A stretch of 64,000 nucleotides of DNA from Kiritimatiellia bacterium. Its GTDB lineage: Bacteria; Verrucomicrobiota; Kiritimatiellia; RFP12; UBA1067. The notes under the pieces were generated by a model, which was given only the letters and a program-made list of their open reading frames with translations, was not told where the DNA came from and did not search any database. The stretch is from contig JAKSOZ010000005.1 of the NCBI GenBank assembly GCA_024405265.1, positions 11,618-75,617 of the forward strand, given 5' to 3'. How positions within the stretch are numbered: the first letter of the stretch is position 1; each line of letters begins with the position of its first letter. Shown in pieces: positions 15,588-64,000 of the stretch. A program made the position numbers and the translations under genes.

Positions 15588-16523
15588 TCATGCCGCTACC
15601 TCCGCGTGCCCATGCGACGAAAACGCCCAACCTCCGACTTGTTTCGGGCGGCATCTCCGTCCATAAAGCGCCGCGCTGAACTCAATCGCGCTCGCCCTCA
15701 CAAACTCCTTCCCGCCTAATATCTTACCTAAGCCTACCTGCGGCACTCTTTTCGTCACATCCACCCCCGATTCTTCCCCCTGTTTTCGGGGACTGTCCCC
15801 ATTTCCATCAGCGCTTCCGATTATCAAGCTTGACGTATAGTTTCTGCATTTAACGGCAAACGCTTCTCCTCTCGCAGCTCCGCCTGCCGAGCTCCAAGGA
15901 TATTCTTCCGGTGTTGCTACCATCTCGGCGCGAACCGGGTTATACTCGATATATTTGCGACAATTATTGAAATAATGCTCGTTTTCCACGATAGTAGACT
16001 TAAAACGCCCTCCCCAGATCGAACCTGAGTATTCTACGAGCTTCTTAAAGCGAATATTGAAAACTTCCTTAAAAGTTTTAACGAACTGACTTAAATCTTG
16101 CATTCTCACGCGATATCTGTCAATCTCCGCTTCAGCCTCGCGCTTCTGTTTGCTCTTACGAAGCATTTTGATGTAACCTGCTATTTCTTTAGCCCTCTTC
16201 TCTCCTTTAAGCACGCCTAGCCTTCGCATCACTTCTTCTTCCGCTATTTTCCACTTGAATTTCTCGGGGACTGTCCCCAAATTCTTTGCGATTTCCACAA
16301 GGGCGGTTTCGATGGTCGGGACCTCTACAGTCAAGTGAAAGTAATCGTCCATAATGACATACGAGCAGATCTTGACCCCGCTGAATTCGGCCGAGATGCG
16401 AAGCGAATCAACCATTATTCGCTTGATTCGCGGATCTTTCAATAGAAAGCGCTTCCCGGCGATACGAGACATAACATGATAGAACGCATCGTTTTCGCTC
16501 TTTACTCTTCTGGTTCTTGCCAT
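15588..16523 (-). mobile_element. Y1 HUH transposase, REP-associated tyrosine transposase (RAYT)-like
   Basis: FYHVMSR, YVIMDDYFHL (HUH position), IWGGRFKS, YIEYNPVRAEMV..PEEYPWSS; flanked by short palindromes. Confidence 0.85.
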
Positions 16524-16565: not shown

Positions 16566-16752
16566 ATATTATCTCATATTCCGAAAAATCAAGTGTCACA
16601 TTTGCGTCACAAAATTGTGACGCAAAAATCCGCTACCTTTTGAGGACGATATGCCTTATACCCCGATAAGCATTGGCTGAAGTCGCGATTCGCGAGAGTT
16701 TACCGAATCTAATAATTCGTCTGAGTAAAATCTTTTTTTGTGACGATGAGGT
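16566..16752 (-). promoter_or_regulatory. 187-bp non-coding module, copy 1 (extended -10 TGAGATAAT plus GTCAC/GTGAC hairpin) upstream of the transposase
   Basis: Ungapped match to 61663-61849 (31 mismatches by hand count, ~83%); 12-bp inverted repeat TTTGCGTCACAA-AA-TTGTGACGCAAA. Confidence 0.85.
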
Positions 16753-16853
16753 TTTGACGGGAGTTTCTGCTTGAATCTCATGGGGACAGGCCCCGGAGAC
16801 TGACTGGGGACAGACCCCGAATATTTCTATATCTCTCCGAGAGTTAAATCAAA

Positions 16854-17800: not shown

Positions 17801-18225
17801 GAATAGAGGGAGTTGTAACGGATAGGCGTAGGAAGAACCTATGATTCTCCATTCAGGAGAAGCGCTAAAGGAGCGAGCAATAGACGCACCGAAGAAGTAG
17901 GTGAGGCTAGTGACGCAAGATTGAGTGTTGAGCTGAGCTTTTAGCGAGGATTTCGGTTCGGGGATTTCGCGTTCGAGAACAAGTAGGCCGAGGAGGAGTA
18001 TCCGCCGACGACGGCATACGAAGTTATCGGGCGCGAAAGCAACGAGAGAAAGACTCGGGAAAAGCGGGAGCGAGACCGAAAGCGAAGCGGCAGCTCGCCG
18101 AATTCGACCAGGGTGCCATGCGCGGCCAAATTCGCCGACACAAGGTAAAGGCAAAAGTAGGTATAATCGCACGGGAATCGTGAAACGATTTACTTTGGTG
18201 CGAGTTGCCGCGTTCGGCAAGAATA

Positions 18226-60217: not shown

Positions 60218-60291
60218 TGGAGCGGGCGAAGGGAATCGAACCCTCGTGTGAAGCTTGGGAAGCTCCTATTCTGCCACTGAATTACGCCCGC
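60218..60291 (-). tRNA. tRNA-Gly(CCC)
   Basis: GCGGGCG acceptor, anticodon loop TT CCC AA, GGTTCGATTCC, encoded CCA. Confidence 0.96.
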
Positions 60292-60324
60292 GAGATAAAA
60301 TTACGAATTGCCGAGGTGAAAGTT

Positions 60325-60418
<94 letters not shown>

Positions 60419-60747: not shown

Positions 60748-61629
60748 CTAAAGCAGGCCGAGAATCGCCGAAGCGGGGAGTTCCATTTTCATGAGCGCGA
60801 AAAGCGCCGCGCCGGCGTCCTTGAGCGACGCGCCGACGTGCCAGACGGTATCGTCGATAATAAGAAAGCGGTCGTGCGACTTCTTATATCCCTTCAACTC
60901 AAGCGGCTTGGTCGGAAATTCGCGCTCGTAGTTTGCTAGCGCCGGCGCGAGACGCGGACTATTGGGCGAAAGCGTATAAACGAGGCAAGCGACGTTTTCG
61001 CCGCGATTGCCGAGGAGCAAAAGCGTTCGCTCGTCGATGTAATTATCGATCAGGACGATGCGCTTTTTAGCTGTCTTGACGATTCGCGTCAGTTCGACCT
61101 GGGCGTCCAGCATTTGCCCGTCGACGAACACCTTCTCCTTCGGCGGGAGCGACGAGCGGATAAAGTAGTCGACGTCTTTGCGAAGCTCGCTTAGCTTGGA
61201 ATCATGCTCCGCCAAGCGTCGGTCCATACGATTCTCAAGATATACAAGCCGATTATCTATCGTTCCGCAGCCTTGCATCCAATATTGTTGGATGATTTTA
61301 TTCGCCCATCTTCTAAATTGAATGCCGAGTTTAGAATTCACTCTAAATCCAACAGATATGATTCCTTCCAAGTTGTACATTCTCACTTTTCGAGAAACAT
61401 ATCGCGAGCCCTCTTTCCGAACTACCGAGAAATCCTCGGCAGTTGAATCTTCATCCAGCTCACCATCAGAAAAGATATTCCTTAAATGAAGACCAACGTT
61501 ATCTGCACTACAACCAAACAATATTGACATCTGTTTTTGCGATAGCCACACTGTCTGACCCGACACGCGAACCTCTATCCGCATGGTTTCATCCGGCTGA
61601 TAGACGACGATTTCGTTTCCCTCTTTCAT
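60748..61629 (-). CDS. RhuM-family (virulence RhuM-like) DNA-binding protein with C-terminal PLD-like domain
   Basis: EIVVYQP..VWLSQKQMSILF, IFSDGEL, YNLEGIISVGFRVNS..GIQFRRWA; C-terminal LIDNYID and HDRFLIIDD..GASLKD; SD aggagg before ATG 61629. Confidence 0.85.
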   Translation of the reverse strand: MKEGNEIVVYQPDETMRIEVRVSGQTVWLSQKQMSILFGCSADNVGLHLRNIFSDGELDEDSTAEDFSVVRKEGSRYVSRKVRMYNLEGIISVGFRVNSKLGIQFRRWANKIIQQYWMQGCGTIDNRLVYLENRMDRRLAEHDSKLSELRKDVDYFIRSSLPPKEKVFVDGQMLDAQVELTRIVKTAKKRIVLIDNYIDERTLLLLGNRGENVACLVYTLSPNSPRLAPALANYEREFPTKPLELKGYKKSHDRFLIIDDTVWHVGASLKDAGAALFALMKMELPASAILGLL

Positions 61630-61662: not shown

Positions 61663-61849
61663 ATATTATCTCATATTTCGGAAAATCAAGTGTCACATTT
61701 GCGTCACATTTTTGTGACGCAAAAATCCGCTGCTTTTTGAGATCGACCTCGACTTCACCCCGATAAACATTGGGCGAAGTCGCGATTCGCGAAAGTTCAC
61801 TCAGGTTAACTATTCGTCTGACAAAAATCTTTTTTTGTGACGATGAGGT
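61663..61849 (-). promoter_or_regulatory. 187-bp non-coding module, copy 2, upstream of the RhuM-like gene
   Basis: Ungapped ~83% match to 16566-16752; hairpin TTTGCGTCACA-TTTT-TGTGACGCAAA; TGAGATAAT extended -10. Confidence 0.85.
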
Positions 61850-61864
61850 GCCTCCGTGGGACGA

Positions 61865-62101
61865 AGCGGTGAGTAGCTGTTGCGACGCGGAGGTGCTTCC
61901 GGGGGACGGCAGCGGTGAGTAGCTGTACTCGCTGAATCGTTTCACGATTCCCGGCAATGAAAGCAAGGTCGACATCGATTTCGCTACCTTTCATTTTCGC
62001 TTCTTAGCAAGCCTTACCCGCTTCGCTTGGCGAAAAAACGATAGTCGAAATCGGGTCGTTGCATGCTTTCCTTGCCGTCACTGTGTAGGCTACTCACCGC
62101 T
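61865..62101. repeat. Non-coding element bounded by 13-bp inverted repeats AGCGGTGAGTAGC (MITE/REP-like)
   Basis: AGCGGTGAGTAGC at 61865 and 61911 (+), inverted at 62089-62101; partial inverted copy at 60732-60741. Confidence 0.55.
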
Positions 62102-62184
62102 CCGTTCCCCTCCAGCCTGAACCGCCTTCGGCGGGGCGAATTCAAGCGCCGAGTCAATTGTATGGCACTTTCACCATACTTTTG

Positions 62185-63402
62185 TCAACCATCTGCAATA
62201 GAAAACTTATCGCGTCCTCGATCTAACAGCACCCAATATATCAAGCGAATAAGCGCAGGAGCATTAAGATGTGAAATTTCGCCCGAGAAATTCGTATAGA
62301 TGTATCCGGAACCAGACGGATCTTCTTTGTTATATTGCTCCATCAGCTTATTATATAGTTCGAGCTCTTTCTTGCTCCAATAGCTAGACGCATCCAATTT
62401 ATCGTGCGCCACAATCTTCAACCTAATGAATGCACGCCCCTCTTTCCTCGGCTCGCCGAGTTCTTTGACCTCTAGAGAAATCCGCTCATCATCGACTAGC
62501 TGCGAAAGGATACAGGCCTCAAATCTGGGCAAGTACCCAATACGGGCATTAAAGGTATCGTCCCAAACCGCAATTGCATTCTTGTCATACTGATTATCCG
62601 GCTCTCGCCGAAGGGAAAATCGATCTGTCGTCGAATAATTGACTTTGCTGTAATTGAGTCCGACGACCCAAATCCCGATCGTGCCTACATCCCAAGGTTC
62701 GCACCATGGTAAGTCCGCTTTAAAATCGGCGAGATTATCCTTGCGAATCCCCTTCGACGCTTCCAATTCCGCCAGTTCTTTCTCATAATGAGCAATATCC
62801 CGGATACCGCAGGCCCGACGTCTACGCGCATTTTTGCAACGTGCGAGAGAAAGCAGCCCTCTTAACATCTTAATCGCGCTCAAATCATATGATTCACGAT
62901 CATAAAAAAGATCATACTTCTCATTATAGCGTTCTATCGTCCAATGAACAAGATGCTGCGAAACATGACAGCGTTCATAACAAAATCCGTCGCATCGCGC
63001 ATCACCGCAACTACAGCCGAAAGCCGGGCACCCATCCGCAGGATTTTCATTCCCATAACCTATTGCCGTAAGGTATCGAACATCCGTGTATTTGAGCGTG
63101 GCTATCACCCCATCAATATACGCGGTTGCCAGTATAGGCTCATAATCATCCGTCCCATTGACGCGAAAAGTATAATTATCCTCTTTCCACTTGCGATTAC
63201 CTTTACGGCGCAAGCGAATGAATGGCCTATCACGAATAATTAAAGGGTCGTGTCGCCAATCATAGTCTTTATATTTAGCCGGCACCAAGTCAGGGTATCG
63301 CTCTCCCAATTCAACCCATTCCAAAGGAGAAAACTCATCTAGATGACGTTCAACGAACGCCCTTCCTCCGGCATTAACTAATTTTCCCCACAAGTCGAAC
63401 AT
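62185..63402 (-). CDS. HIRAN domain-containing protein
   Basis: C-terminal VVGLNY...SLRREPDNQYDKNAIAV...IGYLPR HIRAN motif; lower GC; uncharacterised N-terminus with a Cys cluster. Confidence 0.8.
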   Translation of the reverse strand: MFDLWGKLVNAGGRAFVERHLDEFSPLEWVELGERYPDLVPAKYKDYDWRHDPLIIRDRPFIRLRRKGNRKWKEDNYTFRVNGTDDYEPILATAYIDGVIATLKYTDVRYLTAIGYGNENPADGCPAFGCSCGDARCDGFCYERCHVSQHLVHWTIERYNEKYDLFYDRESYDLSAIKMLRGLLSLARCKNARRRRACGIRDIAHYEKELAELEASKGIRKDNLADFKADLPWCEPWDVGTIGIWVVGLNYSKVNYSTTDRFSLRREPDNQYDKNAIAVWDDTFNARIGYLPRFEACILSQLVDDERISLEVKELGEPRKEGRAFIRLKIVAHDKLDASSYWSKKELELYNKLMEQYNKEDPSGSGYIYTNFSGEISHLNAPALIRLIYWVLLDRGRDKFSIADG

Positions 63403-63415
63403 ATGTATTTACCAA

Positions 63416-63496
63416 TATGTCTATGCTTAGGCGACCACCGCCATGTTTGAGAACAGGGTTGGTCATCCACAGCATAGACATAAGTATATTATATCA
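63416..63496 (-). promoter_or_regulatory. Extended -10 (TGATATAAT, 63488-63496) followed by a 67-nt hairpin leader
   Basis: 12-bp perfect inverted repeat TATGTCTATGCT (63416-63427) / AGCATAGACATA (63471-63482) with further internal pairing. Confidence 0.6.
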
Positions 63497-63544
63497 GATT
63501 CTCGGCTATAATGCGAGTATCCCTTGCCAAATTACGTTACAAGT

Positions 63545-64000
63545 CTACTTATTCCCCTTTGCGCGGTTGTGGGTTTTGCAGAGCATTTGGCAATTCGAGA
63601 TATCGGTCGCACCGCCCTTCGACCAGGCGGTTACGTGGTCGGCGTCCATTTCATTGAATTTATAGATTCTGGTGCGATTTGCTGCGGGCCCGATGGCGCA
63701 GAGAGGGCAATTTGAGTGGCCATGCTCCTCCGCCTCTTTCGTTTGCCGCGCGTAAACCGGCTTCGTTTCCTTCGGCTCAAAGACGCGAAGCTCGAGTAAT
63801 CGCGGCTCGGTTTCTCCGCCCAAGATATATTCGAAGATTCCGCGGCGATTCTTGACGAATTCGTCGGCATAGAGCTCTTTCACTCTCGTCCAGACTTCCT
63901 CGGGTACGTAACCATTATTATGGTAAGCTTCGTAGAGTCGTCCCCACTCGAGTCCGCACATCTCGTCTTCCGTCCCATTAAATACGCCGTCCACCCAATC
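63545..64000 (-). CDS. HNH endonuclease family protein (probably DUF262/GmrSD-type; 5' part outside the window)
   Basis: CPLC...MDADHVTAWSKGGATDISNCQMLCKTHNRAKGNK; GLEWGRLY and GIFEYILGG resemble DUF262-HNH proteins. Confidence 0.85.
   Translation of the reverse strand, partial: DWVDGVFNGTEDEMCGLEWGRLYEAYHNNGYVPEEVWTRVKELYADEFVKNRRGIFEYILGGETEPRLLELRVFEPKETKPVYARQTKEAEEHGHSNCPLCAIGPAANRTRIYKFNEMDADHVTAWSKGGATDISNCQMLCKTHNRAKGNK

Follow-up and report, generated by a model that had tools for sequence, protein, structure and literature searches.

Promoters controlled by response regulators of the OmpR/PhoB type have a classic layout, known from pho boxes and OmpR sites: short boxes recur once per helical turn and replace the −35 element. 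Competence regulons are also held together by a common promoter element, be it the direct repeats of ComE and the cin-box of ComX in streptococci, the ComK boxes of Bacillus or the CRP-S/Sxy sites of gamma-proteobacteria. Here we report on a 187-bp module, located at positions 16566–16752 of a 64,000-nucleotide stretch of contig JAKSOZ010000005.1 (this whole stretch is called the window in what follows), which shares features with both types of systems. The window belongs to a 1.7-Mb metagenome-assembled genome (MAG) of an uncultured gut bacterium of the Kiritimatiellae, hereafter G000—56 contigs, about 77% complete—whose relatives were sampled from rumen and gut. In the reading that we favor, and that we hold to be rather probable, the module is a promoter controlled by a response regulator, it belongs to a regulon of DNA uptake and recombination, and its copies have been kept alike by copying or by gene conversion.

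The likeness to the PhoB pho-box and to the OmpR sites F1–F3/C1–C3 of Escherichia coli concerns the spacing (boxes following the 11-bp turn), the replacement of the −35 element by the array, the good −10 element, the presence of one array in front of several operons and the type of protein, a winged-helix regulator, that is the likely reader. The module differs from these systems in that its array mixes an inverted pair with direct repeats, in that its targets are DNA recombination and uptake genes plus a RAYT-like gene (REP-associated tyrosine transposase, REP standing for repetitive extragenic palindrome), and in that the sequence of the box varies among species of one genus. Besides, the operator is embedded in a 187-bp module conserved as a whole, and the regulator of G000 is an orphan. 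As in competence regulons, one cis element would tie comM, comEC and recA-type genes. The nearest published parallel that we found is the set of RpaA-dependent competence genes of Synechococcus, where an OmpR-family regulator also stands upstream of competence genes (10.1101/822627). The regulators and motifs of the ComE, ComX, ComK, CRP-S/Sxy and RpaA systems, however, do not match those described here. A third comparison is with the REP/RAYT systems (REPtrons), the ends of IS200/IS605 elements and the palindrome-associated transposable elements (PATEs): one copy of the module adjoins a RAYT-like Y1 gene surrounded by GGGGWCWGNCCCC hairpins, and the module itself contains a hairpin-forming inverted repeat. 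By contrast with REP families and their many copies, the module has only four, it has no paired second end, it occurs only at promoters and a complete promoter is part of it. Rather than moving the module, the RAYT-like gene seems to be one of its targets.

Four copies of the module in one genome

The first-pass annotation of this DNA had aligned 16566–16752 with 61663–61849 without indels and counted 31 mismatches, which is exactly what we find (0 gaps, 31 mismatches over 187 bp, 83.4% identity, blastn E = 2.5e-53). It had also proposed to look for the module in the whole genome; this search gives four copies in G000, every one oriented towards its downstream gene. Copy A (C45:28183–28369, i.e. 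window 16566–16752, minus strand, 187 bp) reads 5′ to 3′ towards the RAYT-like gene, and copy B (C45:73280–73466, window 61663–61849, minus strand) lies upstream of a RhuM-family gene. Copy C (C9:564–750) stands before the gene of a 93-aa zinc ribbon protein of the topoisomerase type, then recA, and copy D (C36:10602–10788) before comM, then an unassigned open reading frame (ORF) of 163 aa and yraN. No further copy of the operator, degenerate, partial and intragenic ones included, was found in the recovered contigs of G000.

In its minus-strand reading the module begins with (A/G)CTCATCGTCACAAAAAAAG and finishes with ATATGAGATAATAT. The points where the similarity starts and ends are identical among copies and the stop is abrupt on both sides; on the downstream side it falls just after the extended −10 box (TGAGATAATAT in the minus-strand reading), as noticed in the first-pass annotation. 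This near-consensus extended −10 box ends each of the four copies and the start codon comes about 45 nt past it, the order after the module being a gene-specific 5′ leader, the ribosome-binding site and the start codon. In copy D the module occupies the entire gap from the stop codon of the upstream gene to the comM leader. Small frames within the module do not stay open in all copies, and we treated the module as non-coding. No second block is shared among the four loci: pairwise blastn over 3–4 kb on either side detects only the module, tRNA genes and dispersed repeats.

The identity between independent copies is 81–90%. Copies B and C are identical across the module and 97% identical across 516 bp, module included; the stretch 5′ of copy B (window 61850–62170), 97% identical to the stretch 5′ of copy C, contains REP-like units of about 46 bp. 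These shared 516 bp mark a recent duplication or conversion reaching past the module. As a sequence, the module appears private to this species, because a blastn-type search with the entire module against 40 relatives gave no match and exact-pattern scans of genome and metagenome contig collections gave none outside G000. A loose pattern, applied to 319 genomes of the order, returned only matches at chance level or differently built ones, which are not counted as homologues.

Organization of the module

Among the three independent copies (A, B and D), 41 of the 187 columns are variable. They are clustered (runs test p < 5e-5), the densest variation being 10 variable columns within 15 bp (p = 0.01). 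Invariant or nearly so are the first 26 bp, which hold a CGTCACA box and an A7 tract, then CAGACGAAT, TTTCGCGAATCGCG, CCAATGxTTATCGGG and the last 75 bp; the variable parts are two segments of about 15 bp, the four-base loop of the inverted repeat and the spacer preceding the −10 box. The view of the module as conserved blocks set apart by diverging spacers, which the first-pass annotation had drawn from two copies, is thus borne out column by column.

The last 75 bp read GCGTCACA-N4-TGTGACGC-AAA-TGTGACAC-TTGATTTT-N7-ATATGAGATAATAT. They contain three times an 8-bp box, TGTGAC(G/A)C, the first one inverted and the two others direct, with starts 12 and 11 bp apart; all four copies have the direct repeat TGTGACGC-AAA-TGTGACAC with its 11-bp period and the inverted box 12 bp upstream. 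In copy A, and with positions counted from the −10 hexamer, box P1 (GCGTCACA, inverted, 16616–16623, minus strand) extends from −62 to −55 and forms the left arm of an 8-N4-8 inverted repeat at 16604–16623. Box P2 (TGTGACGC, direct, 16604–16611, minus strand) extends from −50 to −43 and is its right arm; it starts 11 bp upstream of box P3 (TGTGACAC, direct, 16593–16600, minus strand), which covers about −39 to −32, i.e. the −35 position. The extended −10 box TGAGATAAT, within AAATATGAGATAATAT, is at 16568–16576 (minus strand). The hairpin GCGTCACA-N4-TGTGACGC had been described between copies A and B with its arms intact and three of its four loop bases different, and so it is; the loop is ATTT or AAAA depending on the copy.

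The distal 112 bp are also made of conserved blocks: the distal box CGTCACA with its A7 tract, in the invariant 26-bp block at the 5′ end of the module (16739–16745, minus strand, about −180), CAGACGAAT, the invariant palindrome TCGCGA-N-TCGCGA within TTTCGCGAATCGCG (16683–16695, about −122 to −134) and CCAATGxTTATCGGG. The coordinates of all these features in copy B are those of copy A plus 45097: −10 box 61665–61673, P3 61690–61697, P2 61701–61708, P1 61713–61720, palindrome 61780–61792 and distal box 61836–61842.

The module ends with a promoter of the type dominant in G000. The motif TGNTATAAT occurs 290 times in this genome for 38 expected, and TATGNTATAAT 125 times for 2.1 expected, an enrichment of about 60-fold; 5′ of these −10 sites the genome-wide consensus is GAAATA, with a TTG 19–21 nt ahead of the TG. 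The −10 part of the module is a near-perfect match to this dominant promoter consensus (AAATATGAGATAATAT); the consensus TTG is absent and box P3 takes its place. A sigma-70 promoter scan called no −35/−10 pair in the module, because box P3 stands where the TTG should be. By G000's own standard, the 3′ end of the module is a predicted promoter, and very probably the whole module is a shared, regulated one.

Genes behind the module

The product of comM belongs to the YifB family (TIGR00368, 590 bits). ComM is a branch-migration helicase acting in natural transformation (10.1101/147660), and ComEC is the DNA import channel (PMC12455585). In G000, recA, which lies behind the zinc ribbon gene, has its own copy of the module. 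Copy A is predicted to drive the gene of the RAYT-like Y1 (IS200-like) protein, 311 aa long (15588–16523, minus strand; Pfam Y1_Tnp E = 1.3e-6; NCBIfam REP_Tyr_transpos 66 bits, under the cut-off of 80). Its HUH motif reads DYFH (YFH) in G000, against NHFH (HFH) in 24 homologues, so that the first histidine is lost; the tyrosine region, YIEYNPVRA, is kept. The G000 protein may be catalytically impaired. It also has an 18-aa insert, ALVEIAKNLGTVPEKFKWKIA, absent from its homologues, and a phmmer search of this protein against solved structures gave no match. Copy B is predicted to drive the RhuM-family protein (60748–61629, minus strand; 293 aa from an ATG after an AGGAGG ribosome-binding site; Pfam Virulence_RhuM E = 1.2e-18).

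As four copies of the module precede these four operons, our best reading is that they would form one regulon of the DNA-recombination and DNA-uptake type. The first-pass annotation had proposed a portable regulated promoter co-regulating accessory and defence genes. The shared promoter before unrelated genes stands; the composition of the set does not, since it is not mainly accessory or defence: comM, recA and the RAYT-like gene would make up the co-regulated set, which RhuM-like genes join only now and then (in 2 of about 15 genomes).

The same design in related genomes

The architecture of the proximal part of the module is found again in the genus, with other sequences. About 15 of 25 RAYT-like homologues of the same genus have an array of boxes spaced by 10–12 bp, often an inverted pair and then direct repeats with an 11-bp period, right before an extended −10 box; depending on the lineage, the box of these RAYT-like arrays is TCTTAAG, CGTAACA, GGACA, CG(T/C)AAGG or ATTCA. 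Most of the 24 genomes examined for comM have such an array in front of it, again with lineage-specific boxes. The arrays of relatives contain 3–6 boxes at the 10–12 bp spacing, and the lineage-specific boxes across the genus include CTTAAGG, CGTAAGG, GGACAC and GTAACA. In G010, the sequence upstream of comM, TTGTATTACAAAAATGTAATACAAATGTAACACTTTATTTTT, agrees at each position with the proximal 60 bp of the module, the interior of the boxes excepted.

Within a genome, the arrays of different genes often share one box. Arrays of CTTAAG boxes precede comM in G248, G270 and G188, and a ComEC-type gene (Pfam Competence, E = 5e-45) in G244, G248 and G270; in G188 they are also found before a RhuM-like gene and a gene for a four-helix-bundle protein, and extra RAYT-like copies likewise carry CTTAAG arrays. 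One box is common to comM, comEC, RAYT-like or RhuM-like genes in G244, G248, G188 and G270, to comM, comEC and the RAYT-like gene in G004 and G227, to comM and the RAYT-like gene in G008, and to comM and comEC in G019. With regard to a possible competence regulon, the module lies before comM and recA in G000, and an array before comEC in G244, G248, G270, G227, G019 and G004. In several relatives recA lies directly behind comM, the ORF and yraN.

The G188 copies are near-identical across about 85 bp, spacers included, with sharp edges; on this ground the 187-bp module of G000 looks like a longer version of a genus-wide habit. The RhuM-like homologues of 13 relatives mostly have no array, and for this reason RhuM would be an occasional recruit rather than a core member of the set.

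A candidate regulator

In G227, G270 and G321 the gene of an OmpR-family response regulator ends immediately upstream of the array and comM, on the same strand. Its orthologue in G000 (C10:33765–34418) is an orphan, located between a lolD-like gene and a tRNA gene, with no adjoining kinase gene. It has a Response_reg domain (E = 1.2e-32) and aligns over its full length to the NCBIfam PhoB model (E = 1e-37).

The alignment of the orthologues relates the recognition helix to the box of each lineage. Boxes CTTAAGG go with the helix LY[VA]H[VI]SNL, CTTAAGA with VYVHVWNL, CGTAAGG with LYTHVCRL, CTGATGA with LYQHISNL and GGACAC with IRKSISVL; for TGTGAC, TGTAAC and CGTAAC the helices are LRTRIYRL, VRTLVCRL and LRTHMSRL, so that [TC]GT[GA]AC boxes go with [LV]RT.. 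helices. The regulator of G011 has box and helix core in common with a set of regulators, although the identity elsewhere is just 39–44%; at a comparable overall identity, those of G010 and G004 go with other boxes, and their helix identities are 0.29–0.35. From the synteny in G227, G270 and G321 together with this co-variation of helix and box, we lean, if only slightly, towards the C10:33765–34418 regulator as the protein that reads the boxes of G000.

Proposed mechanism and its weak points

The orphan regulator would bind the boxes along one face of the helix, in dimers arranged head-to-tail and head-to-head, and would probably recruit RNA polymerase from the last box, the one that replaces the −35 element, as PhoB does at pho boxes. 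Control is probably by activation, given where the array sits, upstream of the −35 position and across it; repression by occlusion is the alternative. The copies of the module, their boundaries, their block-wise conservation, the promoter consensus, the target genes and the architecture common to relatives are directly readable; it is from them that we infer the identity of the regulator, the direction of control, its signal and the homogenizing mechanism.

Across the genus, the architecture and the targets (comM, comEC, RAYT-like genes) are kept, the box and the recognition helix being rewritten by lineage. Even the spacers, which vary freely from species to species, are alike among the promoters of one genome. 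Because within-genome copies are nearly identical, spacers included, this points to copy-and-paste or gene conversion between promoters, i.e. to a concerted evolution. Such a process would explain the sharp and constant boundaries, the within-genome identity, the turnover between species and the spread of a changed box; the B/C pair is an instance of fresh copying over 0.5 kb. The differences in site sequence among related species suggest that DNA uptake and recombination genes are under a control circuit that is undescribed and evolves fast. A stronger version can be put forward only tentatively, and we find it doubtful at present: one response-regulator circuit for uptake, recombination and RAYT-like genes in gut Kiritimatiellae would behave as a fast-diverging lock-and-key, half-site and recognition helix both being rewritten in each species and a new operator spreading to every promoter of the regulon as whole modules of 85–187 bp. 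If so, the regulon would evolve in concert and each species would have its private control of recombination; the constant presence of RAYT-like genes in the regulon would then imply that the REP-associated HUH nucleases act on single-stranded DNA coming from transformation or repair.

Several observations weigh against this reading as a whole. On the side of the targets, most relatives lack such an array at recA, which there comes after yraN, and the sequences upstream of recA in about 30 relatives contain no GTCAC-type motifs; in G000 it is comEC that has no module, the gene following a dinG-like gene. The rule of one box per genome is also broken. In G003 and G239 the box of comM differs from the one common to comEC and the RAYT-like genes, a two-box repeat of its own precedes comEC in G245 and G188, and in G010 the box of the RAYT-like gene is CTTAAG and that of comM TGTAAYAC, in a bin which is 65% complete, made of 330 contigs and maybe mixed. 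As the boxes differ between genes in G003, G239, G245 and G188, some genomes may use two related regulators rather than one. As for the regulator, its gene adjoins comM in no more than 3 of about 26 genomes, and upstream of the regulator genes themselves no array was found. The G000 protein scores 20.4 bits with Trans_reg_C for a cut-off of 26.2, and, relative to its orthologues, some 10 residues are missing from its winged-helix domain, between the second helix and the recognition helix; besides, the correlation of helix and box is partly confounded by shared ancestry. Finally, the distal 112 bp of the module have no counterpart in relatives and no assigned function.

Other explanations

The main live alternative keeps the boxes as real operators and gives them another reader: the RAYT-like protein, as a domesticated HUH protein regulating itself and its partners, the RhuM-like protein or a further regulator. 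RAYT-like genes are indeed the most constant carriers of arrays besides comM, their box goes with comEC and not with comM in G003 and G239, the N-terminus of the RhuM-like protein resembles by eye a helix-turn-helix, and the lack of arrays at the response regulator genes fits as well. We nevertheless judge such a reader unlikely. Y1 HUH enzymes bind hairpins of single-stranded DNA, whereas the target here would be a duplex with direct repeats phased at 11 bp, and phased direct repeats in place of the −35 element are the textbook geometry of OmpR/PhoB; the RAYT-like paralogues of one genome all share one box type, RhuM-like genes enter the regulon in only 2 of about 15 genomes, and it is the helix of the response regulator that tracks the box. 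A quite improbable explanation, in our opinion, is that of a small non-autonomous mobile element with an outward promoter—a miniature inverted-repeat transposable element (MITE), a PATE or a left end of IS200/IS605 type—moved by the RAYT-like enzyme. It would account for the sharp boundaries, the 8-N4-8 hairpin, the position of copy A next to the RAYT-like gene amid REP hairpins, the 516 bp common to copies B and C with their identical modules, a 5-bp terminal inverted repeat CTCAT/ATGAG and a predicted single-strand fold with z = −4.85. However, the copies are only four, all in one orientation and at promoter distance from a start codon, none being intragenic or reversed; pairwise blastn detects no second end among the four loci, inspection of the flanks no target duplication, and the terminal repeats are limited to these 5 bp. 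In the consensus fold, 0 of 50 pairs show a compensatory change. Moreover, the HUH motif of the RAYT-like protein reads YFH, and the orthologous promoters elsewhere have the same array design with a different sequence, which one insertion cannot explain. For these reasons—no second end, no target duplication, copies at promoters only, the YFH motif, and analogous arrays of other sequence at the same gene positions in relatives—the earlier proposal of an HUH cassette end in which the transposase is swapped for cargo is likewise not supported.

Could the module be, instead, a transcribed object or an SOS operator? A structured leader RNA or small RNA would fit with a fold far more stable than that of shuffled sequence (the z value given above), and a LexA-type operator with recA, the classic SOS gene; both are very improbable. 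The module is upstream of the predicted −10 box and would hence be outside the mRNA, Rfam gives no match at the gathering score or at E ≤ 0.1, no pair covaries, and good folding is expected of any cluster of palindromes. Concerning LexA, the sole match to PF00717 (S24 peptidase) in G000 is a UmuD-like protein of about 128 aa without DNA-binding domain; no LexA was found in the 77% of the genome that is recovered, which leaves its absence unproven. Scarcely credible, at last, is that the copies are decaying, functionless leftovers of segmental duplications. The independent copies are only 81–90% identical and the B/C pair shows that duplications do occur, but the substitutions are strongly clustered, the similarity stops abruptly on both sides and every copy ends at a consensus −10 box, at equal distance from four unrelated start codons. 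A decaying duplication was expected by the first-pass annotation to leave two copies only, with mismatches spread evenly; there are four, with clustered variation. The response-regulator promoter thus remains our preferred reading of the module.

Significance of the module

The class of mechanism, a promoter array read by a response regulator, is well known. Our literature searches found no description of a regulon of comM, recA, comEC and RAYT-like genes in a gut lineage of the PVC group (Planctomycetes–Verrucomicrobia–Chlamydiae), none of a species-wise rewriting of box and helix or of a homogenization of whole modules, and nothing on the control of recombination or DNA uptake in gut bacteria of this group such as Kiritimatiellae. 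For these, the module offers a concrete cis element, a candidate regulator and a list of targets: comM, recA, comEC in relatives and RAYT-like genes. The RAYT-like HUH nucleases, whose cellular role is debated, would in this way be tied to the same switch as ComM and RecA. The genus also provides a natural series of close species whose operators and recognition helices have changed in step, the promoters remaining alike within a genome; it could serve to study how a regulon is recoded and yet stays whole. In practice, the arrays can be used to predict members of the regulon in MAGs.

Minor observations on the loci

Some features of relatives go along with the arrays. The comM leaders (L156, L162, L169, L264, L266 and others) contain, after the −10 box and across species with differing boxes, CGCGTCTTC..GAAGGCGGAAAGG, which forms a small hairpin extending into the ribosome-binding site. 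At L161 (G270:C2), the array-driven ComEC-type frame continues without stop into a GalE-like epimerase sequence, for a total of 768 aa; fusion, frameshift or assembly artefact could each account for it. A match to the loose pattern lies upstream of a rubredoxin gene in G104. In G140, which is of the same family and of another genus, a composite array occurs at no fewer than six loci, i.e. at least six (L091, L098, L102, L104, L105 and L106): it is made of four 22-bp units (GGGTCTCAAAATTCCC..), 3–5 11-bp units ATGTGACGC(G/C)A and 3–5 11-bp units ATGCGGCRCTT. It shares with the module the TGTGACGC box at an 11-bp period and looks like the end of a mobile element or a field of iterons.

At L036 and L037, the boxes GTAGAACA/TGTTCTAC between yraN and recA have the form TGTTC-N4-TGTTC, similar to the direct-repeat LexA motif reported for Verrucomicrobia. 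Some Kiritimatiellae may still use LexA at recA. In G000 the UmuD-like gene is followed by the gene of a Y-family polymerase (C29:6869–8200). The lolD-like gene encodes an ABC ATPase and its stop codon overlaps the GTG start of the candidate regulator gene, which is followed by the tRNA gene and tuf.

Around the copies of the module, the hairpins GGGGACAGGCCCC and GGGGACAGACCCC are directly upstream of copy A (window 16780–16820), and this hairpin family also flanks the RAYT-like genes of many relatives. The REP-like unit of about 46 bp (CAGCTACTCACCGCT..CGTCCC..GGA.GCACCTC) abuts the 5′ end of copies B and C (window 61850–61940) and is scattered on more than 10 contigs (C41, C34, C12, C4, C19, C7, C2, C38, C14, C1 and C53). 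The RhuM-like gene has tRNA-Gly/tRNA-Ser genes on one side and genes for HIRAN-domain and HNH endonuclease proteins on the other (60218–60418 and 62185–63994), a setting that looks like a small island. Another dispersed repeat, of about 170 bp (..GCCGAACCGAAACGCTCTCAATCACTCAGCTCAACGCTCAACCTTGCGTCACTAGCC..), is found at window 17839–17961, about 1.1 kb upstream of copy A, at C9:1–180 and at the ends of C54, C55, C7, C38, C14, C17, C45 and C1, and evidently breaks the assembly. C9, with copy C, the zinc ribbon gene and recA, begins with this repeat and may join C36, which carries comM, the ORF and yraN.

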